Below, one piece after another: positions 4,300-40,412 of a stretch of 64,000 bases of DNA. Source of the stretch: Candidatus Harrisonbacteria bacterium CG10_big_fil_rev_8_21_14_0_10_40_38 (GTDB taxonomy: Bacteria > Patescibacteriota > Minisyncoccia > UBA6257 > 1-14-0-10-40-38); assembly GCA_002773535.1 (NCBI GenBank), contig PFAZ01000001.1, positions 154,806 to 218,805 on the forward strand, in the 5' to 3' direction. Every line of letters begins with the position of its first letter. Position 1 is the first letter of the stretch. Under the pieces are notes generated by a model. It did no database searches. It had not been told where the DNA came from and saw only the letters and a program-made list of their open reading frames with translations. Made by a program: the position numbers and the translations under genes.

Positions 4300-4535
4300 A
4301 AATAAAAGTACGATATACAGCGGAACATATAAATATAAGTGGCGCCCAATATAAGGAGAAACGCCTTCACCTAGCGCAAAACGCAAGAAGTCCTAGCGGC
4401 TTCTCGCAGGCAAGCCTAAGGTAATGAGCTCGCCTGCCGCATTAACCTTTACCTGCGCTTTCGCGCGCGTCAAAAGGAGGTGTGCCTTCGAATAGCACAG
4501 AAACAACCCCACCGACCCGTTCGGTGGGGCTCTTT
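4300..4535 (+). ncRNA. candidate small structured RNA ending in an intrinsic terminator (class undetermined)
   Basis: About 240 nt GC-elevated non-coding stretch downstream of fmt with multiple stems (e.g. GCAGGCAAGCC...GGCGAGC...CTGCC). It ends in the hairpin CCCCACCGACCCGTTCGGTGGGG followed by TTTTTTT. Confidence 0.25.
4497..4535 (+). terminator. rho-independent terminator
   Basis: CCCCACCGAcccgtTCGGTGGGG stem followed by CTCTTTTTTTATT. Confidence 0.6.
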
Positions 4536-4620
4536 TTTTATTTAAATAATTTTAAAAATCTTTAGTCATCAAGCTACCGTCGCTACCCACTAACTCACCT
4601 AATTTCTAGTGGCTTAAATC

Positions 4621-4799
4621 AGTTGTAAGTTGTCAGTCCGAGCGAATCGAGGTCACAAGTCGCACCGAAGAATTTCCTTCTCCCATTTAATCTTAAGTCA
4701 TAAGTTTTAGGCCATTAGGTCGTAAGTATTTGGAATTTATTTGTAATTTGGGATTTGGAATTTAATTAGGTCAATTAGAAATTAGATTAATTAGTAATC
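4621..4799. repeat. dispersed intergenic repeat, long copy A (related to 15296-15454)
   Basis: Shares AGTTGTAAGTTGTCAGTCCGAGCGAAtCGAGGTCacaAGTCGCACCGAAGaATTTCCTT and the downstream ...TTTGTAATTTGG..TTGGAATTTAATTA...ATTAGAAATTAG blocks with copy B. About 85-90% identity by eye, with a ~30 bp indel. Confidence 0.6.
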
Positions 4800-4859
4800 T
4801 TTTATTCCCATAATTCATTATTCTTAATTCATAATTCATATTTAAGGTATAATTAACTC

Positions 4860-6554
4860 GTGAAGAAAATTTTAAAAACATTCGCTTTTTTCCCCCTTTC
4901 CCTCATCGCTCTTCTCTTTTTTATCCTGAGCGTAATCGAAGGACCTCTCATCGCTCATGCCCATGGCTCTCCCTTTCTTGAATTTGCGCCGGATATTTCC
5001 GACCGACTCAAAGTTTCAGATGTAGCAACGCCTGCGCAGGAATTTCAGCCCAAAAACGACTTCTTAGGAGCATTCGATCTCTGGGTAGATAACGAAGGAT
5101 CAGCAGGTTCTGCAACCTTTGAAATCATTGACCAAAATGGATCCGTTGTTGCAAGAAAAACACAAACCATTCCCCACCTACCAGCTGTCTGGAGCGGAAA
5201 TCAAATTCACGTTGACCTCGACAATACCATTAGTATTTCAAGCGAAGAAACATACAGAGTCCGCATAGTAAGCGGCCCACCACAACTCTATTTATACTAC
5301 GCAGACAAAACCCAACTTCTACAACACAACACACTCTATTACTCAGAATATTTTATAAGATCCGCATGGCTTGGAAACACAGAACAAAATTTTGCATTTA
5401 AAATAATCATCTACGAAGTTGAAGACACCGCTCCGCCTATTATCACAAACGCAACCACAACGGAGGTAAATTACTACACAGAAAGAATAGAATTTAACGC
5501 AAACGAGCCAATTGATTTTAAAATAGATTACGCGCCAATAGACGGAGAGGAAAAATCTACAAGTTATACCGGAACATTTCGAGTATGCGAGCCAGTTGCC
5601 TGTGGCGCGAATCTCACAGTCGAACCAGGTAAAAAGACATATGCCTATACGATCACCGCAAAAGATGAATGGGGAAACGAAGGGACAAAGGTAGGCACGT
5701 TTATTAGCCCACCATCTCCACCTACCCCAACGCCAGACCCGTCAGCCTCACCAGACACAACACCCGGAGCCACAACCACACCAGAATCAACATATTCTCC
5801 ATCACCAGACCTAACTCCTCCAACAATCACAAATTCCCGCATCATCGACTTAACTTCAAACAGCGTACGCATAAGCTGGACAACAAACGAAGCCGCCACA
5901 AGCAAACTTTATATATACAAAGGAAATACTTTAATAACAACCGAAGAAGACGCAACTTACGAACTCGAACACTTACTTGGCACTTCAAATATACTAACGC
6001 CAAAAACTTCATATACCGCAAAACTCGAAAGCAAAGACTCGAGCGGAAACATTGGAGCAACCTCCTTCAGCTTTCTCACAGAAGAAGTTGATTCCGACAA
6101 TCAAAATAACAATAACAAAAAACAGCCCAACGAAGACGAAGATGTTTCGCTTTCTCCTGAAAATGGCGGCACGCTTACATGGAACACAAAAGAAGACCCA
6201 CCGGAAGGTTTTCGCATAGATATTTTTGACGAAAATAATCACTATATCGGACAAAGAATCCTTTCAAAAGACAGCCGAGGATGGGAACTCGATCTCCCAC
6301 CAGGAAATTACAAAATCGTTCTCTACAAAGATGAAGGCGAATATTATGAAAAAGTAGGCAAATTTCTCTCAATTAAAGTGAGCGGAAATATTTACGGAAA
6401 GTTTAAAAAACAAATATATTTTGGAATCGCTGGCATGTTGGTACTCACAGGTATAGCAAGTTATATTTGGAATAAAAAACGCTACCCAAAACCAAAAAAG
6501 AAAAAAATGGAGACAGAGAAAGACACAACCTACGAAGCCAACCGCCCATACTAG
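4860..6554 (+). CDS. large secreted/surface-anchored protein
   Basis: GTG start; signal peptide; Pro/Thr-rich linker PPSPPTPTPDPSASPDTTPGATTTPESTYSPSPDLTPP; beta-rich repeats; KKQIYFGIAGMLVLTGIASYIW TM helix plus a KKRYPKPKKKK stop-transfer at the C-terminus. Confidence 0.6.
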   Translation: MKKILKTFAFFPLSLIALLFFILSVIEGPLIAHAHGSPFLEFAPDISDRLKVSDVATPAQEFQPKNDFLGAFDLWVDNEGSAGSATFEIIDQNGSVVARKTQTIPHLPAVWSGNQIHVDLDNTISISSEETYRVRIVSGPPQLYLYYADKTQLLQHNTLYYSEYFIRSAWLGNTEQNFAFKIIIYEVEDTAPPIITNATTTEVNYYTERIEFNANEPIDFKIDYAPIDGEEKSTSYTGTFRVCEPVACGANLTVEPGKKTYAYTITAKDEWGNEGTKVGTFISPPSPPTPTPDPSASPDTTPGATTTPESTYSPSPDLTPPTITNSRIIDLTSNSVRISWTTNEAATSKLYIYKGNTLITTEEDATYELEHLLGTSNILTPKTSYTAKLESKDSSGNIGATSFSFLTEEVDSDNQNNNNKKQPNEDEDVSLSPENGGTLTWNTKEDPPEGFRIDIFDENNHYIGQRILSKDSRGWELDLPPGNYKIVLYKDEGEYYEKVGKFLSIKVSGNIYGKFKKQIYFGIAGMLVLTGIASYIWNKKRYPKPKKKKMETEKDTTYEANRPY

Positions 6555-6633
6555 TAATGCCAAATGTAAAAAGTAAAAAGCACACTGTTTAAATAATTAA
6601 AATCACATTTTACATGTCACATCAAACATATCG

Positions 6634-8121
6634 CTAATGTATCTCCTCCCACGAAATCGTCTCATATTCGTCAGAAGTGAGCGGAAATCCTGGCGGAGGC
6701 CCGAATAAAAGGTTTGCATCATATATCAGGTTTCTGTTTGCATATCCCGAACAATAAATCCCACCACATGACCAGCTAAACCCATACCTCTCATTTGTCC
6801 CAATCATTCCATAAAGTGTAATAGTGTCCCTATATGCTTCCTCGCCACAGTAATTTTGATTACCGCTTGGAGCTTTATAATAATATCTTCCAACACGTCC
6901 ATTCTTTGCGATAATAGCTCCGTCAATTCTTAAATCATCCTCGCTATAAAGACCAACATTTATGTCATTCTGCGCAATAAGGCCAATAACATCAGTGCCA
7001 TCATAATTTGTATAAAGCAGATCATGATTAACATTGATACTTGTCTGAGTCCCAGGATTTTCAGGAAATTTCGCGGATGCAACAGTAATTCTTTGTCCAT
7101 CAATCTGCCCGCTAACCCACAAAAAATCCTCAACAAAGATTAAACCATTATTCGGCATTGGATACGTTCCAACAGATGTCGTTGCATTAATACTCCAAAT
7201 CCCCCAGTCATTATCACTGATTTGGTCAGAGCATCCGTTTGGCTTACGCTTGAGATCTGTAGCTTTTGAAATAGTATATGTGTCATCAGGATGAAAAACT
7301 ATTTCATATCCGTGTGTACCAGAATCTGGGTAATAAGCCCCATTTGTTTGCGCATCAGTTTTAATCTGCGCAAGGTCAGCAGCAATACCAGTAAAATCAA
7401 TTGCGGGCACAGGAAAATCTCTTCCAGCCATAAACACATCCGGCCTATTTGGAACTGGCGAGGGTGGAAGAGGATCGGCAGGATCTACGTGAGTATGCAC
7501 GCCAAAATCATACTGCCCCGAGTGATCTGGGTCATTATAAGAAGCAACCGCGCTAGTAATAATATTGTGCGCAATACCGTCAAAGCGAATTCCCCCGTTT
7601 GAATGAATCGGCCCAAAAACTTCAGTTCCTTCGCCAAATCTCATTGTGTCATTTGCCGCAACAGCAAATTTTGCAAAAGAAGATATGCCGAGCTTAGCTT
7701 GTATAGTTCTCGATACAGACGCATCCGAATACAACCTTCCAGTCGAAGTAAGCGTAACAATAGTTGTACCAGAAAGCGGTTCAACAGAAAGCTCTATTTC
7801 CCCAATCTGTTCCCCATCCTTATCATAATAAGGCAAAGTATATGGCCCTGGCTGGCCCGTTCCATTTGTATAATCAGTCGGATCATGTGCAAGATGCCAC
7901 CTATAGTATTCAATCCCCGCCTCCGCTACTTGAAACGCCTGTTCAGAGTTATACGCTCGAAATGTAGAGTTTATGCTATAAAGCGCAAGGTTAATCAGAA
8001 CCGCAATAAAAACTACTGCCAATGCAGACAAAACAAGTGCTTGAATTAAAATCTGCCCACCCTGTCCACCATTAAAAGCAGTTTTTAGTTTTAAGTTTTT
8101 AGTTTTAAGTTTTATATTCAT
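6634..8121 (-). CDS. PilX-like minor pilin / pilus-associated protein
   Basis: N-terminal hydrophobic helix followed by ...AYNSEQAFQVAEAGIEYY, which resembles the PilX_N motif. Sits at the distal end of the pilB-pilC-pilin string. Confidence 0.5.
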   Translation of the reverse strand: MNIKLKTKNLKLKTAFNGGQGGQILIQALVLSALAVVFIAVLINLALYSINSTFRAYNSEQAFQVAEAGIEYYRWHLAHDPTDYTNGTGQPGPYTLPYYDKDGEQIGEIELSVEPLSGTTIVTLTSTGRLYSDASVSRTIQAKLGISSFAKFAVAANDTMRFGEGTEVFGPIHSNGGIRFDGIAHNIITSAVASYNDPDHSGQYDFGVHTHVDPADPLPPSPVPNRPDVFMAGRDFPVPAIDFTGIAADLAQIKTDAQTNGAYYPDSGTHGYEIVFHPDDTYTISKATDLKRKPNGCSDQISDNDWGIWSINATTSVGTYPMPNNGLIFVEDFLWVSGQIDGQRITVASAKFPENPGTQTSINVNHDLLYTNYDGTDVIGLIAQNDINVGLYSEDDLRIDGAIIAKNGRVGRYYYKAPSGNQNYCGEEAYRDTITLYGMIGTNERYGFSWSCGGIYCSGYANRNLIYDANLLFGPPPGFPLTSDEYETISWEEIH

Positions 8122-8738
8122 TCTCCTGTTCTTAAATTTCTCAAATTAATTTGACTGGAAACAGTTATAGGTGGCGGTGGAAGTAGCGGATTATCATCAA
8201 CAATTAAAGAGATCTTAACTAATCGAACATCTGAAGGAACGACTGGATCAGCAAGAGGCGTAGAAGTCCCTTTATAATCAGAACCAAAATACGAAAATAT
8301 CGGAGTCGAAGTAGCCGCAATATGTTTTAATATGGGTCGCAGAGATTCAGAAGCTGTCGAGGTGCTATACGTCAAAGGGTTACCTTCTGGCTTTATTATA
8401 CTCTGCATAAGAGTATCGCCCTGTAGAAAATAATGAACACGTTCACGATAAGAGTCAGAATCAACATTGCTATAAAAAGCAAATGAATTGGGTTCAGTTA
8501 TCTCGAGCGCAAACCCACCCACATTTGATTGCCCCGCAGATCTTACTTGTGGAGCAATTATTGTCATAGCAGATTGAGCATCTCTATAAGCAATAAACGA
8601 ATCATTTAGAAAACCATTTACAGAAAAAATATCCCTCTGAAGCGTTATAAGTACACCGGATAACACCGCCAAAATTGAAAGACTTATTAAAAGCTCGATT
8701 AAAGTAAATCCCTGCTTTGATTTAATAAATTTTTTCAT
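8118..8738 (-). CDS. type IV pilin / pseudopilin (prepilin-type N-terminal methylation domain)
   Basis: KQGFTLIELLISLSILAVLSGV: canonical G/FTLIE class III signal. Confidence 0.75.
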   Translation of the reverse strand: MKKFIKSKQGFTLIELLISLSILAVLSGVLITLQRDIFSVNGFLNDSFIAYRDAQSAMTIIAPQVRSAGQSNVGGFALEITEPNSFAFYSNVDSDSYRERVHYFLQGDTLMQSIIKPEGNPLTYSTSTASESLRPILKHIAATSTPIFSYFGSDYKGTSTPLADPVVPSDVRLVKISLIVDDNPLLPPPPITVSSQINLRNLRTGE

Positions 8739-8739
8739 A

Positions 8740-10566
8740 TTAAGAAGAAGGATCTAAAAATACCTCAATCTCCTCCCACGAAGAACCAACCGTAATTGTT
8801 TGAGAGTAAGAATCGTAACCGGAATGGGAAACGTCTAAAGTATAAGACCCCGAAGACAAACCGTGAAAAAACGCCTGCCCTGGTGGAACACATTCTGAAG
8901 CGTATGTTAAAGTCACATCAGAAACATTTGGCGTAAATGAAGTACTAGCTGTAGAAAGATAAATTTTATATTTAAAATACCTATCACCATTATGATCTGT
9001 ATTTATATCAGGTGATGTAGTTGTATAAAAAGTATTTGAAGTCCCATCAGGTCCCAAAAAATCCCAACTCAAAGGTGAACTAGTTGTAGCCGTTGCGATT
9101 TGGATTTTTAGCGGATCCGAGCCGGTATCAGGTGACTGATTTGTTGGGTTATAAGAAATAGTATAAAAAGTACTATCAGAACCCGTATCAAAAGTTGACG
9201 ATGTTAAAAATCCCGAACTTACATATGTAGTCGTCGAAACCTGATTTAAAGTAAGATCTCCAACAGGGTTGTCGACAGATATATTACCATCCTGACTCTC
9301 ATATCCTGTAAGATCTCCAAAGTCAGCCTGTCCTGACCCTCCCGACCAATCAGTCTGATTAAATGAACCGCGTCCTGTAGTTATTGTCTCATCGTACCCG
9401 CTTTTTGTGAGATTAACTACTGTATTTGCGATTGGGAGCAAAGTAACAGAATCCTTAACAGTTACAAGTAGTGCCTGCGGGTCTTTAGGCTGGACAACGA
9501 TTTTGAAATCCTGAGTCGAATTTGGTAAAAGGTTTAGCGGTATATTTGGTATTGTACCCGCTACATCATACGAAGAATTACTAAACGACATAGAGTACGC
9601 GTCCCACTCAAGATTTGAAACAGTTCTAGTTCCACCACTTCCTGTGGTAAAACCGTTTGAATATTTCAAAATATCTGGAGTGGTTCCAATAAGCTTTGCG
9701 CCAGAAAGAGTGAAGTTTATACTTCCCACCGGCGAACACGACTCCGTAAGACTCGAAACACCAAGAGTGCTTACACGATCGATAGCAAAAGTAACACTAG
9801 TAACTTGACCGGTAGCAACAGTAACCGGAAGTTTTACAGGGTTTGGTACCGAAACACTCGGCTCATATGTTTGATCCGTAGAATAACCCGTCTTTGAAAC
9901 AGTAATGTCATATGTCTGACTCCCTGGCGGAACATCAATGAGTTTCAGATACCCATCAGAATCTGTCTCATCCGTAAGATCAATTTGGGGCGTTGATGAC
10001 GCATTTACAACGTGAACCTTTGCACTCGGTATACCTATCCCATTTGCATCAATCGCTTGAATAAAAATCGCCCCGTTTGAACCAGTAGACTCAAGACTCC
10101 TCGGTGCAACCCGACCGGTAAAATTAAATATCTCTGGTCTATCACAGTTTGCGCAATTAAGTTCAAGTGAAACAAGTTTATAGTCTGCAGGCGAAGTATC
10201 GTTTGGCGCGCCACCAATAGTTCCATCAAACGGATCATCTACATTACGAATTGTAGTAGTGAGAGTAAAAGCATAATTATCCCTATAAAATATCTGAACA
10301 GGTGGCACAACTCCTGAAGGCACGCCGCCAACAACACCAACATCCGAATACGGCATGTTCCTCAAAACCTCTATCTGTTCATTTGCGATAGATGCCGCTG
10401 CAACTTTTTGCCTCGAACTCGTAAGAAGTGTGAGAACAACCGAAAAACCTTGATACAAAACAAGGCCAATAACAACTAAAAGCGCTACCCCAATAACCGT
10501 CTCGAGAAGTGATAATCCTTTGAGACGTTTTTTTTCAAGCAACGGCAAAACGGCATGCTTTCTCAT
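8740..10566 (-). CDS. very large prepilin-type protein (608 aa) with Ig-like beta-rich body
   Basis: KGLSLLETVIGVALLVVIGLVL prepilin N-terminus with Glu at +5; Thr/Ser-rich repeats. Confidence 0.7.
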   Translation of the reverse strand: MRKHAVLPLLEKKRLKGLSLLETVIGVALLVVIGLVLYQGFSVVLTLLTSSRQKVAAASIANEQIEVLRNMPYSDVGVVGGVPSGVVPPVQIFYRDNYAFTLTTTIRNVDDPFDGTIGGAPNDTSPADYKLVSLELNCANCDRPEIFNFTGRVAPRSLESTGSNGAIFIQAIDANGIGIPSAKVHVVNASSTPQIDLTDETDSDGYLKLIDVPPGSQTYDITVSKTGYSTDQTYEPSVSVPNPVKLPVTVATGQVTSVTFAIDRVSTLGVSSLTESCSPVGSINFTLSGAKLIGTTPDILKYSNGFTTGSGGTRTVSNLEWDAYSMSFSNSSYDVAGTIPNIPLNLLPNSTQDFKIVVQPKDPQALLVTVKDSVTLLPIANTVVNLTKSGYDETITTGRGSFNQTDWSGGSGQADFGDLTGYESQDGNISVDNPVGDLTLNQVSTTTYVSSGFLTSSTFDTGSDSTFYTISYNPTNQSPDTGSDPLKIQIATATTSSPLSWDFLGPDGTSNTFYTTTSPDINTDHNGDRYFKYKIYLSTASTSFTPNVSDVTLTYASECVPPGQAFFHGLSSGSYTLDVSHSGYDSYSQTITVGSSWEEIEVFLDPSS

Positions 10567-31130: not shown

Positions 31131-31919
31131 TTATTGCGCAAGTTCTGCAAGTATGAACTTATCCAAATCACCATCTAAAACTTTTTCAGGGTCATGAACC
31201 TCAACTTTTGTCCGGTGATCCTTCACTTGCTTGTATGGGTGTAATACATAAGAACGAATCTGGCTTCCCCACTCCGGTTTTGCTTTTGAGCGAAGATTCG
31301 ACAGTTCCTGTTCCTGGTGTTGCTCCATTAGGTGCAAAAGTTTTGACTTTAAAAGCGCCATCGCCTTATCTCTGTTTTGTTGTTGACTTCGCTCTGCCCT
31401 CGCAGCAACAACAATACCCGTTGGTTTGTGAACGATGCGAACTGCAGTTTCAACTTTATTTACATTCTGCCCTCCGGGCCCCCCTGCGCGCGAAAAAGTT
31501 ATCTCCAAGTCTTCAGGCGGGATATCAAGTTTTTTGTGTTCAATGTCCGGCAAAACCGGCACGACCTCAACTAATGCAAAAGATGTGTGTCGAAGTTTTT
31601 TTGCTGAAAACGGAGAAATCCTTACAAGCCTATGAACTCCCATTTCTTTTTTTAAATTTCCATAAGCATACTCACCTTTTATTTCGAGCGCTCTATCATC
31701 GGTTTGAATAGCCTTCCAACCTCTTCTCTCCGCATAACGCAAATACATACGAAAAAGCATATCTGCCCAATCTTTTGCATCATCACCCCCAACACCGGGA
31801 TGAATAGAAAGATGAGCAGAAAAGGCATCGTATTTTCCCGTAAGAGGCTTTAGCGGCAAATCATTTATTTCAGTCATAAATACGAAGCTAAGCATATCAA
31901 ACCGCGCACAAATTGACAA
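31131..31919 (-). CDS. prfB: peptide chain release factor 2-type protein lacking the N-terminal domain 1
   Basis: SPF stop-codon recognition tripeptide ([11 protein letters not shown]) and GGQ ([10 protein letters not shown]). Aligns to E. coli RF2 from about residue 118 onward. The region upstream is occupied by a plus-strand gene, so there is no room for domain 1 or a frameshift site. Confidence 0.7.
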
Positions 31920-31978
31920 ATATAAAAATAAATTTTACTCTTTTAAAACCAGCTCATTCCAAAACGAGGAATCAAAAG

Positions 31979-32440
31979 ATGGCAAACAAAAACAGAATCC
32001 CTCCAATGCCCATCGACCTGAACTCTGAAAATGTCGTAAACGCTGTACCAAAAGCAGGCACCATGCTTTACTTCAACATCAGCGATAAACCCAAGAAAGA
32101 AGGATATTGCAGAGTCGAACTTGTAATTAAAAATGGCGAAAAGAAAATCATTACATCCTTCGAAGACATGGAGTTAAATCGCGAAGATAGCAATGCAGCA
32201 GAAAAAGAAGCAATAAAATTTGAAGGCGAGCGCGAGCCAAATCCGCAATTTATTATTGAATGCACGTACAGAATAATTGCAAATTATCTTGCCAGAGACT
32301 CAACAGTATCAATCATGAGAGATACTCAAACAAGAACTCTCGACATCAATATAATCACCGCAGGAGCAAGATACGTTTCCCTGCGATCCATCCCATGGAT
32401 CAATGTTCTGGATTTCTTCGACGAAAAAAAAGATGAGTAG
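31979..32440 (+). CDS. hypothetical protein
   Basis: ATG at 31979 is preceded by a GAGGA SD; 153 aa. Confidence 0.4.
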   Translation: MANKNRIPPMPIDLNSENVVNAVPKAGTMLYFNISDKPKKEGYCRVELVIKNGEKKIITSFEDMELNREDSNAAEKEAIKFEGEREPNPQFIIECTYRIIANYLARDSTVSIMRDTQTRTLDINIITAGARYVSLRSIPWINVLDFFDEKKDE

Positions 32441-32467
32441 GTTCAAAAACCGAAAAAAGCCCCTGTC

Positions 32468-32492
32468 CGCAAAACAGGGGCATTAAATTTTT
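32468..32492. terminator. bidirectional intrinsic terminator
   Basis: GCCCCTGTccgcaaaACAGGGGC hairpin flanked by A-run upstream and T-run downstream, between convergent genes. Confidence 0.5.
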
Positions 32493-33248
32493 TTATAGAT
32501 AATCAAGCAACCTGTCGTAATCCAAAAACTCAAATATTTTATAAAAGAAAGTTATCCAAAGACCAAAACCATCAGTAACTAAAAGAATCCCAAGGAAAAT
32601 CAAAAACACTCCACCAACCACAGAAATAACATTTAGATATTTAGTTATTTTTGAAATATAAAACGAAGCCGAACCAATAAGTAAAGCTATTACAAGAAAC
32701 GGTAAAGCGAGACCCAAAGAAAAAACTCCTAAAAGAAACCCTCCTTTAAAAACCGTTGCAGAAGCCGCCGCCAGTGTTAAAATCGATCCCAAAATCGGGC
32801 CGACACATGGAGTCCATCCAAAACCAAAAGTTGCTCCAAAAATCAAAGAACTCACAGGATTTCCCGGTTTCAAAAATTTCACACCACCTATACGTTTTTC
32901 AACATTTAAAAATGGCAGTTTAAAAATCCCAATCATAAATAATCCAAAAAATATCACAAATATCCCCCCTATTCGAGATAGCCAAAGTCGATATTTTATA
33001 AGAACAGCCCCACCAAGACCAAAAAGACTTCCAAGTAATATAAAAACAAAGCTAAATCCAATAACAAACAAAAGTCCGTTCAAAAACACTTTTTTTCTAG
33101 AAGATTTTGATTTGTCGGGATCTCGCAAATCTTGCGATGAAACACCGCTTACAAAACCCAAATAACCGGGCACAAGTGGAAGCGTGCACGGAGCGAGAAA
33201 AGTCAAAAGTCCTGCAATGAACGCAGGAACAACAAGCGCGAGATCCAT
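32493..33248 (-). CDS. ccdA: cytochrome c biogenesis/thiol-disulfide transporter CcdA (DsbD family)
   Basis: LAPCTLPLVPGY motif and the six-TM DsbD core. Confidence 0.7.
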   Translation of the reverse strand: MDLALVVPAFIAGLLTFLAPCTLPLVPGYLGFVSGVSSQDLRDPDKSKSSRKKVFLNGLLFVIGFSFVFILLGSLFGLGGAVLIKYRLWLSRIGGIFVIFFGLFMIGIFKLPFLNVEKRIGGVKFLKPGNPVSSLIFGATFGFGWTPCVGPILGSILTLAAASATVFKGGFLLGVFSLGLALPFLVIALLIGSASFYISKITKYLNVISVVGGVFLIFLGILLVTDGFGLWITFFYKIFEFLDYDRLLDYL

Positions 33249-33274
33249 AACCTAATTATAACAAATTATTTAAG

Positions 33275-33346
33275 AGCCAGCGGTGGGAATTGAACCCACG
33301 ACCTTTGCTTTACGAAAGCACTGCTCTGCCTCTGAGCTACGCTGGC
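33275..33346 (-). tRNA. tRNA-Thr (anticodon CGT)
   Basis: GCCAGCG acceptor / CGCTGGC + T discriminator; D arm GCTC-AGAGGCA-GAGC; anticodon loop TTCGTAA; T arm GTGGG-TTCAATT-CCCAC. Confidence 0.75.
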
Positions 33347-33587
33347 AAAATTTATCAAACCCTTGCTTGAAACCTGTCCGCCTTTGGCGAAAAAGCACTG
33401 CTCTGACTCCGCCAGTTGGCGGATGGCGAAGGTAGGGAGTTAAACGGGTGACAAGCCAACACTTTTACATTTTACTCGCCAGAAGCGATTGTACAAAAAT
33501 AACAAGAAAACCGCAATTACAAAAAACGAAATCCCCCGCCTGGTAAAACCAAAACGGGGGTTGGTAGAGAAGGAAGATGGGCGCGTG

Positions 33588-33758
33588 CTAACGAATCCCC
33601 AATTCCGCCAGTCGCGCACGAGCAGCCAAACCTTGACTCCTCACGAGAGACTCGGCATGCCACCTGTCGTAAGATTCGCTAGAAGTGAGAGTTTTTTCCT
33701 CGACTTTCTCTTCTTTGTTTTCTTTCTTTTCTTCTTTCTTTTTTGGATCAGCCGCCAT
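33588..33758 (-). CDS. small Lys/Glu-rich protein (tentative)
   Basis: ATG preceded by a GGAGGGCGAGAG SD; MAADPKKKEEKKENKEEKVEEK...; the 3' half is GC-rich. Confidence 0.3.
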   Translation of the reverse strand: MAADPKKKEEKKENKEEKVEEKTLTSSESYDRWHAESLVRSQGLAARARLAELGIR

Positions 33759-33864
33759 CTCTCGCCCTCCAAAAAAAACACTATCAAGAACTACCAATAT
33801 ACTATCACAATAAAACCCCATTTGTCAATATATCAAAACCCTCGCAAAATAAGGCGAAAAAACA

Positions 33865-34794
33865 CTAAACTCCACATCCGCTTCCACTTTTTTGTGTTGG
33901 AGAAGAAACCTGGCTCACAATATTGCGATATCCCGAACCGCTTGAATATCCTGAGTCAAGAATCGCTCTTGGATCCGCATCCTTCCATGCGATACCCTTC
34001 GAATCGAGATAAGTCGCGATTGTTGTATATGCATCCGGAAACCAGTACGAATTAACCCTAAGCGCAATTTTATACATCTCATCTTCAGAAAGGCCCTGCG
34101 AAGCCATAAGCTCAAGAAGTCCAAGCATAGCCATGCCATGATTACAATCCGGAAAGTGAGTTGGGTTATTACAACACGGACGGAAAATATGTTTACTCAT
34201 TTCCTCAACCATTCCCTGTTCATCTGCAGTAAGAGAAATAAGACGATGCATACTATAGTGATCCATGACATTACCACGCGCAAGAGTCCAACCCCCTGTA
34301 GAAGCAAAGTTTTCAGCCCCTCCATATTGCGGGTCAACCATCGGGCCTGAATCAAGAATTTCGTTTTTTGTCGCAAGTCCCAAAGCCCAGAAAAGATTTA
34401 AAAGAAAACCGGAATTTAAAGAATTCATGGCTATAGAGTCGTTATTCGGGTTATTGATCAGATCCCACTCCCTGTCAGTGATACCACCTCTTCTTTCGTA
34501 TAAAGCGGAAAACTTTTCCTTGTCAATAACACCAAGTTCAGTAAGACGCACTCCAAGATCTCCCCACTCAACAGGAAGTATAAAATCTTTTGCTGGTATA
34601 ACAGCGTCTTCAATTAATTCCGCTTTTGAAATTTCGGAATTGCCAACTTTATCTGTTGCGACCGAATTACGCTCATTTATATATATGAACGTCCCGGCAA
34701 TAATCATCGAAGAAATAATTATGCTACGCGAAAATAATCGAAAAGCGCTTTCCCGAGATAAATTTGATTCTTGCATATATTTATTTTTCATCAC
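33865..34794 (-). CDS. membrane-anchored secreted protein with CC...C...C cluster
   Basis: N-terminal TM anchor; PCCNNPTHFPDCNHG and a C-terminal GSGCGV; no family assigned. Confidence 0.5.
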   Translation of the reverse strand: MMKNKYMQESNLSRESAFRLFSRSIIISSMIIAGTFIYINERNSVATDKVGNSEISKAELIEDAVIPAKDFILPVEWGDLGVRLTELGVIDKEKFSALYERRGGITDREWDLINNPNNDSIAMNSLNSGFLLNLFWALGLATKNEILDSGPMVDPQYGGAENFASTGGWTLARGNVMDHYSMHRLISLTADEQGMVEEMSKHIFRPCCNNPTHFPDCNHGMAMLGLLELMASQGLSEDEMYKIALRVNSYWFPDAYTTIATYLDSKGIAWKDADPRAILDSGYSSGSGYRNIVSQVSSPTQKSGSGCGV

Positions 34795-35317
34795 AACAAT
34801 CGACGAGTTTACTAATTAAGTCTTCAAAATCCCAAGGGTTTTTATTATTTACATCACCAGCCTTAGAGTCATCAATATGAGGAATAGAGACGAGTTTCAG
34901 ACGTACCGCCCAAAAAAGTGAATATGTGCGATAAGCACGATCAAACATATTTTTAGCTTTTTCTTTCAATCCATCAGACTGCAATTTTGTTCCAACCTCA
35001 ATAAGTCTCATCGTCGCCGCAAGAAGATGTTTGGAAATACACCACGTCTCTCCTTCATGAGCGCTGATCATTGTACCAAGAAGATCCTTTCTCAAAGACC
35101 TTACCTCATTTAGCAAGTCAAAGTATTCCGGCTTATGTGTTTTTACACCCGTAAAAAAGAAGTGTTCCTCAAGACTGATAAGGTTCATAACAGCGAGGCT
35201 CAAGTCTTCCTCAGTAGAAAGATCAACCCCACTATTTTTTTGAGCCTCTTTAACATTCTCAAGCAGTTTCTTAAATCGCTCATCATGTACATGAGCAGAA
35301 GAATTTTTTGTTGTCAT
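34781..35317 (-). CDS. hypothetical protein (ends ...VDCCDEK), overlaps downstream gene by 14 bp
   Basis: 178-aa helical protein; translationally coupled to the 33865 gene. Confidence 0.45.
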   Translation of the reverse strand: MTTKNSSAHVHDERFKKLLENVKEAQKNSGVDLSTEEDLSLAVMNLISLEEHFFFTGVKTHKPEYFDLLNEVRSLRKDLLGTMISAHEGETWCISKHLLAATMRLIEVGTKLQSDGLKEKAKNMFDRAYRTYSLFWAVRLKLVSIPHIDDSKAGDVNNKNPWDFEDLISKLVDCCDEK

Positions 35318-35323
35318 TTTAGT

Positions 35324-36106
35324 TTAAAAGAGAAAAATAATAATTCCGAGCAAAACCATTGCAAGACCACTCCATAGTTTCATAGCCAAAGTATTGCTCT
35401 TTTTCCAAGTTTGGATTCGTTCAACAAACTTTGCATTACTGGCAATCAGCAAAATAATAACTAGCGGCAAAACAAAAATCGCATTATACAGAAACAGATA
35501 CCCTAAACCCACGGTATATGTAGTGCTGTCATGAAGCAGACCCAAAACCATCAAGTATGGCCCTCCTGTACAGGGAAATTCGCACAGACCAACAAGTAAA
35601 CCTAAAAGAAACGCGGTTGGTATAGAAGCGTGCTCCATAAGACGCGCCATTGCTGAATGCGCCGCATGAGGAATGCGAAACCTAATAGGAAAAGATGGAA
35701 AAACTCCTGCAAGAAAATTAAACATTCCAAGAACAACCAAAAGCAAAGCTCCCACCTTGGCCATAAAATGTGGTGTATTAAAGAAATGAAGAGCGTGAAC
35801 AATCCCAAGCCCAATCAAAAAATACACAACAAAAAGACCTAAAATATACACGGCTCCGATTTTCAGAATGCCAGAACGCATTTTTCCGAGCGAAAGTAGA
35901 AAAGCGATAGTTAGAAGAAGAATTCCAAATGCGCAAGGATTAATGCTGTCTATAAGAGCGGCGATACTAACAAGTGGCAAAAGCCACGTTCCACCACGAC
36001 TAACATCCCAGATAAACGCTGAACTGGATGGCACAGATTTTAGAACTATAACCGATCCAAAAATAAAAACTCCAACAATAATCGAGATAAGTAATGTTTT
36101 ATTCAT
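35324..36106 (-). CDS. DsbD/CcdA-like polytopic membrane thiol-disulfide protein
   Basis: INPCAFG and CEFPCTGGP Cys motifs within TM helices; about seven TMs. Confidence 0.5.
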   Translation of the reverse strand: MNKTLLISIIVGVFIFGSVIVLKSVPSSSAFIWDVSRGGTWLLPLVSIAALIDSINPCAFGILLLTIAFLLSLGKMRSGILKIGAVYILGLFVVYFLIGLGIVHALHFFNTPHFMAKVGALLLVVLGMFNFLAGVFPSFPIRFRIPHAAHSAMARLMEHASIPTAFLLGLLVGLCEFPCTGGPYLMVLGLLHDSTTYTVGLGYLFLYNAIFVLPLVIILLIASNAKFVERIQTWKKSNTLAMKLWSGLAMVLLGIIIFLF

Positions 36107-36111
36107 ACAAA

Positions 36112-36609
36112 TTAGGGCGTAACTATTGCATGAAATTTAAGTTCAACAGGGTTATTCGCATCATTCTCAATCGTCACAACCCTGTTTACCTGCCCGACAC
36201 CAGCAGGACCATGGGCAGCAGGATCAAAGACAACATCAACTATCGCTTCATCACCTAAATCAAGAGTTTGATCTACTCGGGGAATTATCCCGTGACCACG
36301 CATTCCAAAAGGACCAAATCTCTCACCAGCAATCTGAAGAGTCGCAGAAGTGCACATACACGATGTATAAAACTTTCTAATAACAACAGGCGAAGCTCCA
36401 ACATTTTTTAACACGAATTTATGCGACACCACACCACTACTCATTGATATCGTGCCAAAATCAAAGTAATTAGAATCAACAACCGTAAGAGAACCAGTGC
36501 CATTTTGAGATGAGCCAGACGACACTCCGCTCACATCACCGCCGGCAAGCAAAAGAACAATTCCCAACGCCGCAGCGCCAAGAAAAATTCCTATAATATT
36601 TTTTTGCAT
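36112..36609 (-). CDS. DUF1573-family secreted protein
   Basis: Signal peptide; the TSCMCT motif within a beta-rich ~120-aa domain is typical of DUF1573. Confidence 0.6.
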   Translation of the reverse strand: MQKNIIGIFLGAAALGIVLLLAGGDVSGVSSGSSQNGTGSLTVVDSNYFDFGTISMSSGVVSHKFVLKNVGASPVVIRKFYTSCMCTSATLQIAGERFGPFGMRGHGIIPRVDQTLDLGDEAIVDVVFDPAAHGPAGVGQVNRVVTIENDANNPVELKFHAIVTP

Positions 36610-36723: not shown

Positions 36724-37122
36724 TTAGGCGCGTAAAAAATACGGCGGACTGGTTTTATAAAAAGAGAGCCACAAAATAAAATCACAAAAGAAAACTATAA
36801 TACTCGAAAATACAATTCGTAAAAAATAAAAAGCTTTTGCGGAAAAAAACAAAATAATAAACCAAAGCAAAAAAGAAAGAGTTAGCAAAACAGATAAATT
36901 TATAAAAATTAGAAAAGGCTGCACCAATAAAATCTGCGCGAAACTTTTAAATACTCCTAAATGAAATTTAAGATAACTAAAAACATTTCCCTCGGGACAA
37001 TCAACTCCATTCATAGACGCTGCAATGCAATCACTATGATTCATGACACCATGAAAAAAAGGAGAGAATGTAGACAAAAAGATAAAGCTATAAAAAAGTA
37101 AAATTGATAAAAAATATTTCAT
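36724..37122 (-). CDS. small membrane protein with Cys/His/Met cluster (tentative)
   Basis: HGVMNHSDCIAASMNGVDCPEGN between TM helices; immediately downstream of the Cu-ATPase; AT-rich, so coding status is uncertain. Confidence 0.3.
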   Translation of the reverse strand: MKYFLSILLFYSFIFLSTFSPFFHGVMNHSDCIAASMNGVDCPEGNVFSYLKFHLGVFKSFAQILLVQPFLIFINLSVLLTLSFLLWFIILFFSAKAFYFLRIVFSSIIVFFCDFILWLSFYKTSPPYFLRA

Positions 37123-37126: not shown

Positions 37127-39160
37127 CTAATATGTTAGTTCAACTCGTTTCAATAAAAGCGCATTAAAAACAACGATCGCGGTAGACACACTCATAAGCA
37201 ACGCCCCAATTTCCGGACGCAAAAAGAAACCAAAAGAGGCAAACACTCCTGCAGCGGCGGGGATCGCGACCACATTATATCCAAGCGCCCAGAAAAGATT
37301 TTCGATCATCTTCTGATACACCCGTCTTGCAAGCACAACCAGACGCACAACATCTTGCGGATTGTTTCGCATAAGAACAACATCCCCCGCTTCGACAGCG
37401 ACATCCGTACCCGCGCCAATAGCTATACCAACATCAGCTTGCGTAAGAGCAGGCGCATCATTGATACCATCTCCAACCATCAGAACCACATGGCCTTTAC
37501 CCTGAAGCGATTTTACATGAGAATATTTTTCTTCCGGCAAAACATGCGAAAAATAAGTATCGATACCAAGTTCATTCGACACGTTTTTTGCCACAATCTC
37601 GTTATCCCCCGTAAGCAAAGCAACTTTTACACCAAGCGAATGCAAAGCTGTAACCGCTTCATAAGATTCGGCTTTTATAGTATCAGCAAGGGCAATAACT
37701 CCTATTATCTTTTTCTTATCAGAAACAAATACAACCGTATGACCTTTTGATGAAAAAGCATTTGCCTGCTGCATAGCTTCATCAGTCGAAATTCCCAAAT
37801 CACTCATAAGAGAAGAATTTCCAACAGAATATTTTGAACCTAAAATATTTCCCCAAATTCCCTTTCCGGAAAAATTATGAAATTCATCAACGTCATCAAT
37901 ATTTATACCCTTATCCTTTGCATGCCTCGCGATAGACTGCGCAATAACGTGCGAGGAATTGGTTTCAAGCGAAGCCGCGATACGCAATATATCTTCACCA
38001 TTAACTTCATCGCCAAATGACACAACACCCGAAACACCAAATTCCCCCTTCGTCAGAGTTCCTGTTTTATCAAACACAACATAATCAGCTTTTTTTATCA
38101 CTTCAAGTTTTGCAAGATTTTTTATAAAAAGTCCGTTCTTTACCGCAAGAGATGTCGCAATCGTGGTAACAGTAGGTATCGCAAGGCCGAGGGCATGCGG
38201 ACACGCTATCACAAGCACCGTTATAGCAAGAGTCAGCGCAAATACAAAAGGCTTCCCAATGACAAACAACCATATAACAATAGTCAGCAATGAAACCCCC
38301 AGAGCGGTAAAAGTGAGAACACGCGAAGCTTTATCAGCTAGTTTTTGTGATCTCGGTTTTGTAGCCTGCGCTTTTGCGATTAGCGTCTGAATTTGACCCA
38401 CGGTTGAATGCTCACCAACTTTAGTAAGTTGTATCGTAAGTGATCCATCTAAAACAGACGATCCCGCAGTAGCGCTGTCCCCTGCATTTTTTGAAATAGG
38501 CGTTGACTCCCCACTTATGAGAGACTCATCAACGCTTGAAGTTCCTTTCAGAACAACACCATCGGCAGGTATCTTTTCCCCCGATTTTACCAAAACAACG
38601 TCCCCCTCTCTTAGTTCAGAAACAGAAACATCCTCCGTCACATTTCCCGAGATTCTATGTGCAGCTTTAGGTAAAAGTCTTGCCACCTCGGAAAGAGAAT
38701 TCCCCGCCGCCACGCTGGATTTTGCCTCCAAATAATGTCCAAAAAGTAGCACCCAAATAAGAGTTCCTATCTCAAGATAAAACACAACACCGAGAGCGGG
38801 AATAAGTGTAGAAGCAACTGAAAATAAAAACCCAGACCCAACAGCAAGCGACACAAGCGTCATCATGCCAAACGATCGCATCATTATTTCATGTCTTGCA
38901 TGCTTAAAGAAGACAAGAGAAAACCAAAAAATAACTGTTGCAATAGCAAGCTGAATCCATTTATTTAAACTTAAAACCGGTACACCCAAAAAATCCGCAA
39001 AACCTTGTTTAGCAAGAACCAAGGGAATGAGAAGTAAGGTTACTATCCAAAACCTACGCAAAAAATCACTCGCCGAGCCATGAGATATAGCACCGGCATA
39101 TGACACATTAGCATGCGACATTGCATGAGCATGTGACGAATTATGATGCATATGCTCCAT
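37127..39160 (-). CDS. copB: heavy-metal P1B-type ATPase, CopB-like (His-rich N-terminus, CPH motif)
   Basis: N-terminal MEHMHHNSSHAHAMSHA; TM CPHALGL; DKTGTLT; GDGINDAP. Confidence 0.85.
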   Translation of the reverse strand: MEHMHHNSSHAHAMSHANVSYAGAISHGSASDFLRRFWIVTLLLIPLVLAKQGFADFLGVPVLSLNKWIQLAIATVIFWFSLVFFKHARHEIMMRSFGMMTLVSLAVGSGFLFSVASTLIPALGVVFYLEIGTLIWVLLFGHYLEAKSSVAAGNSLSEVARLLPKAAHRISGNVTEDVSVSELREGDVVLVKSGEKIPADGVVLKGTSSVDESLISGESTPISKNAGDSATAGSSVLDGSLTIQLTKVGEHSTVGQIQTLIAKAQATKPRSQKLADKASRVLTFTALGVSLLTIVIWLFVIGKPFVFALTLAITVLVIACPHALGLAIPTVTTIATSLAVKNGLFIKNLAKLEVIKKADYVVFDKTGTLTKGEFGVSGVVSFGDEVNGEDILRIAASLETNSSHVIAQSIARHAKDKGINIDDVDEFHNFSGKGIWGNILGSKYSVGNSSLMSDLGISTDEAMQQANAFSSKGHTVVFVSDKKKIIGVIALADTIKAESYEAVTALHSLGVKVALLTGDNEIVAKNVSNELGIDTYFSHVLPEEKYSHVKSLQGKGHVVLMVGDGINDAPALTQADVGIAIGAGTDVAVEAGDVVLMRNNPQDVVRLVVLARRVYQKMIENLFWALGYNVVAIPAAAGVFASFGFFLRPEIGALLMSVSTAIVVFNALLLKRVELTY

Positions 39161-39163
39161 AAA

Positions 39164-39631
39164 CTATTTTTTTAGTAGAAACTTAACTAACGCAAAAATC
39201 GACAGGATAAGAAATATCCATACAAGCCCAAACGTAACCGTAAAATAGGCTGAATTCCACCCAGAATTGGCATAATTACCCATGCCATAAGGCGACATCA
39301 TAGACATCATCGGCATTGTATAAGGAGTGCCGGAATAACCGGACCAGCATCCAAGATATGATCGCCCCATATTGATATGCGCCAACCTTAGGCTTTCAGA
39401 CCCCTCACCACCCATCATATTATCCATTGCCTCATGTTGATCCTCATCAGGAATCATAACCCTCATATAAGCATCACCTAAAAACTCAAACTGATCATCG
39501 GTAACCTTCTTACAATCAACATCATCGAGGCTTGAAATGTTCTGAAAAGCGTAAATAGATTCTAAAGCTTCATTTAATTCAGCGCTTTGAACATTTCCAA
39601 TATAACTATTATATCCACCCATCATGCCCAT
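39164..39631 (-). CDS. Met-rich membrane-anchored protein, putative Cu(I)-binding
   Basis: MGMMGGY...MDNMMGGEG...YTMPMMSMMSPYGMG plus a C-terminal TM; position between csoR and copB. Confidence 0.5.
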   Translation of the reverse strand: MGMMGGYNSYIGNVQSAELNEALESIYAFQNISSLDDVDCKKVTDDQFEFLGDAYMRVMIPDEDQHEAMDNMMGGEGSESLRLAHINMGRSYLGCWSGYSGTPYTMPMMSMMSPYGMGNYANSGWNSAYFTVTFGLVWIFLILSIFALVKFLLKK

Positions 39632-39701
39632 CTGAGCAAATGCCGTACCTGAAAAGAAAAATAAACCAACGACAAACAGTGAAAAAAATATCTTTTTTAT
39701 A

Positions 39702-39974
39702 TTATTTATTAGATAAATTATAAACCTTTATAAGTTCCTTAACCGCCTTTTCATTTTCCTTTTTATTTGTCATCTGCTCAGCAACATGAGTACGCAAATG
39801 ATTTTCTAAAAGAAATGAATCAAGGCTTTTAAGCGACCTTTGAATCGAACGGGATTGTTCAAGTAATTCCGGGCAATAAACTTCATTTTCTATCGATTTA
39901 ATAAGTCCATCTATCTGACCCTTAAGTATTTTAGCTCTATGCAGAGCCCTTTTTTTAAGTAATTGATCTACCAT
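39702..39974 (-). CDS. csoR: CsoR/RcnR-family metal-sensing repressor
   Basis: C-terminal 90 aa match the DUF156 helical bundle (ALHRAKILKGQIDGL...YCPELLEQSRSIQRSL). Start moved to the internal ATG at 39974 because the ORF-track N-terminus is read through tRNA-Gly. Confidence 0.7.
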   Translation of the reverse strand: MVDQLLKKRALHRAKILKGQIDGLIKSIENEVYCPELLEQSRSIQRSLKSLDSFLLENHLRTHVAEQMTNKKENEKAVKELIKVYNLSNK

Positions 39975-40030
39975 ACATAAATAGCATATACCCCTATACC
40001 CTATTTGACAATATAAACATGTGGATAATC

Positions 40031-40104
40031 TTGGAGCGGGTAACGGGAATCGGACCCGTGTCTCAACCTTGGGAAGGTCGCGTACTGCCACTGTACTATA
40101 CCCG
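40031..40104 (-). tRNA. tRNA-Gly (anticodon CCC), CCA encoded
   Basis: GCGGGTA/TACCCGC acceptor; D arm GTAC-AGTGGCA-GTAC; anticodon loop TTCCCAA; T arm ACGGG-TCCGATT-CCCGT; ends TCCA. Confidence 0.75.
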
Positions 40105-40412
40105 CATACCAATCTTTATATCACCACTTTCACTTACATTTCAACACAAAAAACTAGCTCTGTTCTATTTGATTTTATAAATCAAATAGAACTACCTTAA
40201 GTCCAACTACGCTAAAAACGCACAATGAAAATGAATTACACAAAACACCTCTGTATATTATTTTTCGAAACTCCGCAGGTAATTCGGCTTGGTTCCCCGC
40301 ATTACGGGGACGAATTACCGAGGACAAGCAAGTGAGCCGCTGGAGCGAACGCAGCGTGTTGAGAAAAGTAATATGGAGAGGTGTTTAATTCAAAAAATAA
40401 AACCACCAATTT

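Follow-up and report, generated by a model that had tools for sequence, protein, structure and literature searches.

This report concerns a copper-linked thiol module in a 64-kb stretch of DNA (the whole of which we call the window) from a Candidatus Harrisonbacteria bacterium, a member of the Patescibacteria or candidate phyla radiation (CPR), and in particular a 309-amino-acid (aa) protein, PCC309, which is 100% identical to a protein of a Candidatus Harrisonbacteria metagenome-assembled genome. In the direction of transcription, the genes are csoR with its operator, a Met-rich protein, a CopB-type ATPase, the membrane protein memb132, a DUF1573 protein, a DsbD-like membrane protein, CCDEK178 and PCC309, followed by tRNA-Thr and ccdA, and everything from csoR to PCC309 lies on the minus strand with gaps of 4-114 nt or overlaps. 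A first-pass annotation had singled out 32493-36609 as a thiol-disulfide module, and its five named parts (ccdA, PCC309, CCDEK178, the DsbD-like gene and the DUF1573 gene) are indeed all present at or within that range on the minus strand; it missed memb132 (36724-37122) and the upstream copper context (37127-40011), and so covered only the distal part of a longer copper operon. The region is best explained as the distal portion of an operon or island that responds to copper and is conserved across Patescibacteria. For the comparisons below, GTDB representative genomes were scanned, which gave at least 582 encoded relatives, and the best 80 loci (L001-L080, 1.26 Mb in all) were read by six-frame open reading frames (ORFs) with phmmer and jackhmmer, the remaining ORFs being clustered; topologies are those of hydropathy analysis.

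The operon opens with a promoter-like site (TTGTCA-17-TATGCT, 39983-40011, minus strand; promoter scan and sequence), and inside it, between the -35 and -10 elements, sits an operator-like G-tract box of the CsoR type, ATAGGGTATAGGGGTATA, with its core at 39989-40003. CsoR copper sensors bind Cu(I) through Cys-His-Cys ligands and use a G/C-tract operator at their own promoter. The csoR gene here (39702-39974, minus strand) encodes a metal-sensing repressor of that family (Pfam Trns_repr_metal, E=3.6e-17) which is also 90 aa long in the public-record gene call, and its ligand fingerprint is C-H-H, not C-H-C, the same as in 23 of 35 related csoR genes; these fall into a C-H-C class of 12 genes and a C-H-H class of 23, the window's included. 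The start codon stands about 8 nt past the -10 element (39972-39988, minus strand), so the transcript would be leaderless or nearly so, and a similar spacing is seen in L010, L016, L024, L056 and other related loci.

Next comes the Met-rich protein (39164-39700, minus strand, first ATG at 39631; sequence and hydropathy), which has MGMMGG and MPMMSMMSP motifs and a C-terminal transmembrane (TM) anchor and finds no Pfam match, nor any in Pfam or NCBIfam at E≤10. The 23 in-frame codons before that ATG (39632-39700) encode a signal peptide, KKIFFSLFVVGLFFFSGTAFA/Q, and include no ATG, GTG or TTG, so that translation likely begins at a non-canonical ATA or ATT near 39700, directly after the csoR stop. 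To judge from its Met motifs and its position between csoR and the ATPase, this protein may well bind Cu(I). The ATPase itself (37127-39160, minus strand) is a copper P1B-type pump, scoring 551.9 bits against a cutoff of 397 for the copper-translocating ATPase model TIGR01511 and matching Pfam E1-E2_ATPase, and we call it CopB-type (P1B-3) because of its His-rich N-terminus, MEHMHHNSSHAHAMSH, and the CPH form of its membrane motif (IACPHALG).

The thiol module begins 4 nt past the ATPase gene with memb132 (36724-37122, minus strand), a 132-aa Cys/His membrane protein recognised by conservation and topology, which is the conserved first gene of the module and has no Pfam or NCBIfam match even at E≤10. 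It consists of an N-terminal TM segment or signal, an acidic outside loop with C32-x9-C42 and H54, and then two to three further TM helices. The DUF1573 protein that follows (36112-36609, minus strand; Pfam PF07610, E=1.3e-12, 48.0 bits against a cutoff of 26.1) is Ig-like, begins with an anchor or signal and carries TSCMCT, GMPGH and DPxAHGP as invariant motifs; at least 90% of 57 homologues keep TSCMCT, which bears out the SCxCT motif of the first-pass annotation. In some members of the family, which are selenoproteins, UGC stands at the CxC position (PMC9312934), and this exchange argues for a redox-active motif; the periplasmic acceptor domain of DsbD is Ig-like too (PMC3884852).

The third gene (35324-36106, minus strand) encodes a 260-aa membrane protein with INPCAFG and CEFPCTGGP motifs, in which an extra N-terminal TM helix precedes a six-TM core, C58 and C175/C179 lie within helices, and a His/Met-rich loop, HALHFFNTPHFM, is predicted to face outward. 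Pfam DsbD does not score above its cutoff, and there are weak matches to SfLAP (27.7 bits against a cutoff of 35), ArsG and DsbD. Profile comparison by hhalign with the CcdA-type neighbours of related loci nevertheless gives a probability of 97.9% (E=4.6e-13, 193 columns), with NPC58 on APC21 and FPC179 on TPC148, and both Pro-Cys motifs are kept in at least 90% of 75 homologues. By these alignments the protein is a true DsbD/CcdA relative, and we read it as a reductant conduit, not a metal channel, because its Pro-Cys motifs are kept and because it is swappable with canonical CcdA in the same slot of related loci.

Two proteins outside any Pfam or NCBIfam family come next, neither of them finding a match there at E≤10, nor in the PDB when it was searched by sequence with the family profiles. 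CCDEK178 (34781-35317, minus strand; sequence, conservation and hydropathy) is a 178-aa, soluble, all-helical protein ending in CCDEK, and its gene overlaps the start of the PCC309 gene by 11-14 nt, which fits the translational coupling proposed in the first-pass annotation. It was described there as secreted, a description that does not hold: the protein has no signal peptide, TM helix or any hydrophobic segment and is therefore cytoplasmic. It has 5,449 homologues (60-68% identity), and E50, E51, H52, E88, E90, C93, H97 and the C-terminal Cys-Cys are invariant. PCC309 (33865-34794, minus strand; same kinds of evidence) contains PCCNNPTHFPDCNHG, ends in GSGCGV and has one N-terminal TM helix (21-39) before a large acidic C-terminal part, which makes it a type-II anchored protein with its domain outside; the earlier word 'secreted' is right as to the side of the membrane, and it is wrong in that the protein is anchored rather than released.

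Beyond PCC309 lie a tRNA-Thr gene (CGT; 33274-33346, minus strand, ARAGORN) and ccdA (32493-33248, minus strand; Pfam DsbD_TM, PF02683, E=2e-15), whose six-TM product carries APC21 and TPC148 (hydropathy, sequence) and may be read as a second reductant conduit; a terminator-like hairpin of 10 pairs, six of them G-C, followed by a T-run, stands just past it (32459-32481, minus strand). The claim that two CcdA/DsbD-like proteins flank the Cys-bearing proteins is correct in that both genes are of this type and the two Cys proteins are encoded between them; ccdA is set apart by the tRNA and a promoter-like site. That site, TTGACA-16-tgGATAGT at 33828-33801, is the best of its kind in the region and may drive tRNA-Thr and ccdA separately. 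It overlaps the 5' end of a doubtful 77-aa K/E-rich ORF called in public records (33588-33821, minus strand), which we considered as a member of the module and rejected as probably not part of it, since none of the 80 loci has a homologue. In L021, L050, L051, L054 and L059, too, the PCC gene is followed directly by ccdA, which makes it reasonable to count ccdA in the module despite the tRNA and the promoter-like site between.

The window's gene order recurs in most of the 80 Patescibacteria loci, an arrangement far beyond chance. In the 63 loci whose sequence extends at least 4 kb upstream of PCC, memb132 is found in 59, a DsbD-like or CcdA-type gene in 56, and either a DUF1573 or a Sco/Redoxin-fold protein in 57, the latter two never together (0 of 63); likewise, CCDEK178 or a 5-TM-CC protein is present in 36 and both in none. 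Two cassettes emerge from this. Type 1, the window's, runs memb132, DUF1573, DsbD-like, optionally CCDEK178 or the 5-TM-CC protein, optionally a thioredoxin-like protein, and PCC309; type 2 runs memb132, CcdA with a Sco-like thioredoxin fold, optionally CCDEK178, and PCC309. The Sco-like protein (Pfam AhpC-TSA 3.5e-15, SCO1-SenC 5e-05), with an invariant MCYPAC and a downstream GH(T), fills the DUF1573/DsbD-like slot together with CcdA in 15-16 related loci. The thioredoxin-like protein is inserted before the PCC gene in 11 loci and its Pfam Thioredoxin match is sub-threshold (E=7e-04, 20.0 bits against a cutoff of 23.5), with WCPHC in the representative.

The 5-TM-CC protein is of about 150 aa, with CPxC where TM2 begins and, as its last residues, the ..KNCC of a tail that is basic and amphipathic; it is located between the DsbD-like and PCC genes wherever CCDEK178 is absent (L005, L009, L012, L019, L026, L029, L030, L038, L042, L044, L048, L049, L052, L068 and L072). 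In one natural fusion, P0246, the 5-TM protein with its basic ..NCC tail is joined straight to the PCC anchor helix, an arrangement that puts the PCC domain outside the cell and the CC tail within it.

What ties this module to copper is its company. A Cu ATPase or csoR gene is found in 69 of the 80 loci (within the retrieved stretch), at a median distance of 264 bp from the module, at most 100 bp in 29 loci and at most 1 kb in 55, where by our estimate chance would give a few percent for genomes of about 1 Mb with one or two such genes. Pumps of the CopA type (CPC plus HMA) and the CopB type (CPH, His-rich) both adjoin it, and memb132 begins within 60 nt past an ATPase or csoR gene in about 15 loci as well as in the window. 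The csoR promoters carry a box between -35 and -10, ATACCCCCTAGGGGGTAT, or ATAGGGnATnGGGGTATA for the window's csoR class, and across the 1.26 Mb these patterns occur almost exclusively at csoR promoters; in five loci where the module is apart from csoR (L018, L032, L035, L045 and L059), a CsoR box lies directly before memb132. Control by copper thus appears well supported by operator and operon position for a subset of loci, and for the rest we infer it. As for the boxes themselves, two operator types are represented in L001-L080, the palindrome ATACCCCCTAGGGGGTAT and ATAGGGnATnGGGGTATA, and some loci (L010) carry both csoR genes.

These islands also encode tandem Cupredoxin_1 proteins, DUF3105, SHOCT-tailed Met-rich peptides, the 'GPGGHHR' family and a trio of DUF5676, Cys-His-tail and ICMT proteins, content that is typical of copper islands. 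The trio often comes after csoR and consists of DUF5676 (2 TM), a 97-aa membrane protein with an N-terminal MMWMMAICC and a C-terminal ..HSGHGCCH, and an ICMT/PEMT-like methyltransferase, each family occurring in 12 loci; it is seen in L004, L016, L032, L050, L051, L059, L064, L066 and others and is absent from the window. Membrane-anchored pairs of Cupredoxin_1 proteins are found in L010, L014, L016, L023, L024, L033, L034, L039, L040, L045, L056, L062, L066, L067, L069, L071 and L072. Their representative has C...CGMGM, which recalls how Cys and Met form the Cu(I) sites in pneumococcal CupA; the Cys is not conserved across the cluster.

PCC309 is the most distinctive component of the module. 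More than 7,489 homologues share 50-60% identity with it, every one of them 'hypothetical' and none with a Pfam domain, and an exhaustive hidden Markov model search yields 717 clusters at 50% identity. Invariant among 150 representatives are R205-P-C207-C208-x-N210, D216-C217-N218-H219-G220, ASTGGW (164-169), W136 and W251; RPCCxN, with its vicinal CC, is kept in 141 of 141 PCC sequences, and 132 of the 150 representatives have a Cys at -3 from the C-terminus. H179 and H183 were considered as metal ligands and set aside: they are invariant among close relatives and not family-wide. In other organisms the PCC domain is fused to Cys-bearing membrane proteins. A second membrane domain (4 TM, GA.A.GCP.CG...PL.GLE.K) is fused N-terminal to PCC in proteins of about 500 aa (P0287, P0290, P0300, P0324 and P0345) and is also a stand-alone gene in a few loci (L050 130-720, L051 7163-7720); the fused N-terminal membrane domains, whether of the GCPxCG or the CPxC/CC type, match nothing in Pfam or NCBIfam.

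The likeness that gives PCC309 a possible chemistry is to CcmH. When the C-domain of 129 PCC sequences is aligned by hhalign with both CcmH of Escherichia coli and Pseudomonas aeruginosa plus a CC-containing variant from an additional locus, L084, the probability is 72% (E=3.5e-05), and the register sets RPCCxN on RCPxCQN, PDCN on the conserved ADSN and QGxSExEM on EGKSKKEI. At L084 a PCC homologue, P0290 (here fused to the 4-TM GCPxCG domain), is followed by a Pfam-recognised CcmH domain (3.3e-09) fused to DUF1573, and this latter protein carries FRCPCCENNIGECTC, the same CC-x-N...C pattern as PCC309 (FRCPCCENN...C). A homologue search with the L084 CcmH-variant domain returned nothing, and no further CcmH- or PCYCGC-like motifs were found in the 80 loci. 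As currently defined, the CcmH family does not include PCC309; we consider it probably a distant relative of the CcmH fold, whose Cys-motif region looks like a divergent three-helix bundle.

Does this make the module an ordinary cytochrome c maturation system, either System II (CcdA/ResA plus CcsBA) or a remnant of System I with CcmH? A CcdA is present and PCC309 has its CcmH-like region, and there the case in favour ends. The canonical LRCxxC signature of CcmH is not kept in PCC309, and the neighbours are copper genes, not heme-handling ones. The first-pass annotation had argued against this function, had seen no cytochrome c, and had named c-type cytochromes together with ResB/CcsA as what would speak for ordinary System II. 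Its judgement is borne out: no ORF with the WWD motif (CcsA/CcmC/CcmF type) occurs in the window or in the 1.26 Mb of related loci, the 64-kb window holds no CXXCH ORF of 60 aa or more on the minus strand, where all called genes lie, or above 100 aa on the plus strand, and just one plausible small cytochrome c was found in the related loci. Within the window and these loci, cytochrome c maturation is effectively excluded, and we regard it as the least credible explanation of all.

The same conservation data bear on the suggestion, also made at first pass, that the two unannotated Cys proteins are specific exported substrates of the flanking CcdA/DsbD-like proteins. In its favour, both are encoded between two DsbD-type genes and both have conserved Cys motifs. 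Against it, CCDEK178, with neither signal peptide nor TM helix, is cytoplasmic, and PCC309 resembles an oxidoreductase of the CcmH type and is fused to Cys-bearing membrane proteins elsewhere. Moreover, in conservation and spread neither family falls behind the DsbD-like gene, both being components found in thousands of genomes with Cys residues as invariant as those of enzymes or carriers. We therefore think it very improbable that these proteins are mere substrates.

Our preferred reading, to which we would give a probability of roughly one half, is that the module is an extracytoplasmic pathway of thiol reduction and Cu(I) handling fed by DsbD/CcdA-type proteins, and not a route of cytochrome c maturation. 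The observation of the first-pass annotation is confirmed and its interpretation stands in part, the extracytoplasmic thiol-redox module built around DsbD/CcdA-type proteins being supported; what changes is the likely purpose, since the link to csoR or a Cu ATPase in 69 of 80 loci points to copper stress or copper handling and not to the maturation of some substrate. The sequences show the gene content and its conservation, the kinship of the DsbD-like protein with CcdA, the topologies by hydropathy, the tie to csoR and the Cu ATPase, and the operator; from these we infer the direction of electron flow, the order of the relay, the binding of Cu(I) and the physiological role, as follows. The DsbD-like protein or CcdA would move reducing equivalents from the cytoplasm across the membrane by way of its two membrane-embedded Pro-Cys cysteines, and an extracytoplasmic carrier would accept them, DUF1573 with its CxC in the window and a Sco/TlpA-like thioredoxin fold (CxxxC plus His) elsewhere. 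The carrier would hand them on to membrane-anchored PCC309, with its RPCC...DCNH CcmH-like bundle and a flexible C-terminal Cys tail, and in this way the relay might keep extracytoplasmic Cys reduced at high copper or during efflux by the adjacent ATPase. The thiols so protected would be the Cu(I)-ligand Cys of the module's own proteins and probably also those of client envelope proteins, and once reduced they could bind the Cu(I) leaving the pump, or copper-catalysed disulfides could be undone, or both. Alongside, memb132 (Cx9C...H) would be the constant partner of the DsbD-like protein, and CCDEK178 or the 5-TM-CC protein an optional partner on the cytoplasmic side, acting as donor or adaptor or as a Cu(I)-sensing or Cu(I)-donating arm. 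That Cu(I) handling might be involved at all is suggested by the Met/His residues beside the Cys motifs of DUF1573, the HALHFFNTPHFM loop, the Sco-like alternative and the Cys tail of PCC309. There are precedents for both halves of the idea: copper oxidises envelope thiols, and the copper-induced ScsB and ScsC, both Cu+-binding, counter this oxidation (PMC10907172), and TlpA reduces the cysteines of Sco and CoxB prior to metallation (PMC7558416).

A number of points weigh against this reading. The CcmH likeness is faint: a Foldseek search of the PCC309 model against the PDB gave nothing below E=1, Pfam CcmH (PF03918) does not match PCC309 even at E≤10, hhalign against the CcmH of E. coli and P. 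aeruginosa, with the L084 variant left out, is weak both for the 26-sequence PCC alignment A1 (E=0.38) and for the 129-sequence C-domain (E=0.027), and the canonical CxxC is replaced in PCC309 by a vicinal CC. As to regulation, many loci have an independent-looking promoter before memb132 that contains no recognisable CsoR box. The client proteins of the relay are hypothetical. Finally, the cytoplasmic CC tails and the PCC309 Cys tail look as much like metal hand-off arms, of the kind known from MerA, as like redox elements, and the outward His/Met loop of the DsbD-like protein also fits metal handling.

These last points lead to a Mer-like relay in which the Cys residues pass copper and not electrons, from the CC tails through the DsbD-fold protein to DUF1573 and PCC309, serving Cu(I) export or sequestration parallel to the ATPase (a variant that imports copper is less likely still). 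C-terminal vicinal Cys-Cys tails are metal hand-off arms in MerA, and such tails stand here on the cytoplasmic side, with the Cys at -3 of most PCC309 relatives on the other. The conserved Met and His residues beside the Cys motifs of DUF1573 (TSCMCT, GMPGH, AHGP) and in the loop that the DsbD-like protein turns outward, the Sco-like alternative partner, Sco proteins being copper binders, the tight link to copper genes and the existence of metal transporters in the DsbD-fold superfamily, echoed in the weak SfLAP and ArsG matches, would all suit such a relay. It has to contend with the fact that both catalytic Pro-Cys motifs of CcdA are kept and aligned in register in a protein that can be exchanged for canonical CcdA-type genes, that a dedicated Cu ATPase makes export redundant, that disulfide chemistry is what the thioredoxin-like proteins (WCPHC in the representative; below the Pfam cutoff) and the CcmH-like region suggest, and that Pfam and NCBIfam searches detected no Mer-family homology. 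On balance we find copper transfer of this kind unlikely; it stays the main rival because the cytoplasmic CC-tailed proteins could be either dedicated electron donors or adaptors, or arms that sense or donate Cu(I).

A further possibility is that PCC309 and its reductants prepare, by reducing them, the metal-binding Cys of secreted cupredoxin or CuA-type proteins to which the ATPase delivers copper, much as TlpA, Sco, PCuAC and CcoI-type ATPases do for oxidases. At the L083 locus a 140-aa cupredoxin bearing the CuA-type motif CSIYCGAGHSSM comes after a PCC fusion gene, and the neighbours at L084 include COX2-like cupredoxins and PCYCGC and Fer4_5 proteins; 18 loci have tandem Cupredoxin_1 genes close to the module, and the partner in type 2 cassettes is Sco-like. 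By analogy, CcmH reduces a Cys pair beside a His ligand (CXXCH) before the cofactor is attached (PMC3884852). Against this, a homology search with a cupredoxin from the related loci found no cupredoxin, COX2 or other cuproprotein gene in the 64-kb window, most loci have the module and no cupredoxins, and derepression of the CsoR type together with Met-rich and SHOCT proteins is typical of detoxification. Patescibacteria, to our knowledge, are mostly without respiratory oxidases. Cuproprotein maturation is accordingly doubtful in our eyes, and rather more so than a copper relay. L084 itself (1-9924) is a high-GC contig that is probably not from the CPR; past the PCC and CcmH-DUF1573 fusions it has two more DUF1573 genes, a PCYCGC-motif protein and the COX2-like cupredoxins, one with a cytochrome c domain, along with a Fer4_5 membrane protein, a rhodanese, DUF2085 and a P-type ATPase, and it looks like a larger copper, thiol and oxidase assembly cluster.

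Returning to thiol reduction as the preferred reading, it can be extended to a lineage-wide hypothesis, which we put forward tentatively and with less confidence than its core: that Patescibacteria have an envelope thiol system in which a CcmH-derived PCC309, detached from cytochrome c maturation, has been re-used for copper defence, fed by either a DsbD-like/DUF1573 or a CcdA/Sco-like pair and coupled to new CC-arm proteins on the cytoplasmic side. That DsbD/CcdA-fed envelope thiol chemistry is tied to copper is known already; what is new is the parts and their combination. The module is not described in the literature searched, four of its components fall outside any curated family, and a CcmH-like protein appears to be employed here with no heme machinery nearby. 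The CPR/Patescibacteria account for much of bacterial diversity, and for a large fraction of their conserved genes no function is assigned; here four unannotated conserved families (PCC309, CCDEK178, memb132 and 5-TM-CC) are placed in one copper-linked module with a testable mechanism. If this is true, at least four families with thousands of members each would gain their first functional assignment, DUF1573 would become a candidate thiol carrier resembling DsbD-alpha, the CcmH fold would extend beyond heme biology, and we would have an idea of how organisms with no periplasm and largely no cytochromes protect or exploit surface thiols under copper stress. The putative CsoR operator, defined for the phylum, could be used to map the copper regulons of uncultured genomes.

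Some features around the operon deserve mention for their own sake. The csoR-to-PCC309 block (6.7 kb) is flanked by tRNA genes, tRNA-Gly (40032-40105) on one side and tRNA-Thr on the other, and in L064, too, the csoR box has a tRNA just before it; the block does not deviate in GC content, so recent transfer is not indicated. Beyond ccdA, a release factor 2 gene (31131-31919, minus strand) has SPF and GGQ motifs and encodes just 254-262 aa or so, the N-terminal domain of about 100 aa seeming to be absent. The 520 nt upstream of it (the observation as a whole spans 31131-32440) are without a minus-strand frame and hold only a 175-aa plus-strand ORF with no Pfam match.

How, then, does the module compare with systems that are already understood? 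In the Mer system (MerP-MerT-MerA) Cys pairs form a chain that starts outside, crosses the membrane in a membrane protein and ends in the cytoplasm at a protein whose C-terminus is a vicinal Cys-Cys arm. Our module also chains Cys pairs to a cytoplasmic Cys-Cys arm, but no Mer sequence homology was detected, the membrane protein has the DsbD fold and the metal context is copper. The proposed relay mirrors DsbD to CcmG to CcmH of System I, placed inside a copper operon; unlike System I, no heme-handling proteins or CXXCH clients were found, RPCC...DCNH stands where LRCxxC would, and PCC309 is longer by an N-terminal domain of about 125 aa and by a Cys tail at the C-terminus, neither of which CcmH has. 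With the CcdA/TlpA to ScoI/CoxB route of CuA assembly it would share the need for reduced extracytoplasmic Cys in copper binding (PMC7558416), and in 15-16 related loci a Sco-like CxxxC+His protein is likewise paired with CcdA. It differs in that neither the window nor most loci have an oxidase subunit II or PCuAC close by, and the CsoR and CopA/CopB context argues for detoxification rather than oxidase biogenesis.

The suppressor-of-copper-sensitivity (Scs) proteins ScsB/ScsC(/ScsD) of Salmonella, Proteus and Caulobacter offer a parallel as a copper-linked envelope thiol unit, tied to the copper stress response, in which a DsbD-type transporter feeds Cu(I)-binding thiol oxidoreductases (PMC10907172; see also PMC3322552). 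Induction of the module by copper and a part in copper tolerance would follow from its operon position behind csoR and the Cu ATPase and from the CsoR boxes before memb132 in five loci. Unlike ScsB, the 260-aa protein is a membrane core of CcdA size without the periplasmic domains, and its partners are DUF1573 with its CxC and PCC309 in place of the thioredoxin-fold ScsC and ScsD; the window's module contains no thioredoxin-fold gene, such partners occurring only in other loci. To this the Patescibacteria cassette adds its CC-tailed cytoplasmic partners and memb132; its regulation would be by CsoR, inside a Cu ATPase operon, and its host is a presumably monoderm CPR bacterium.

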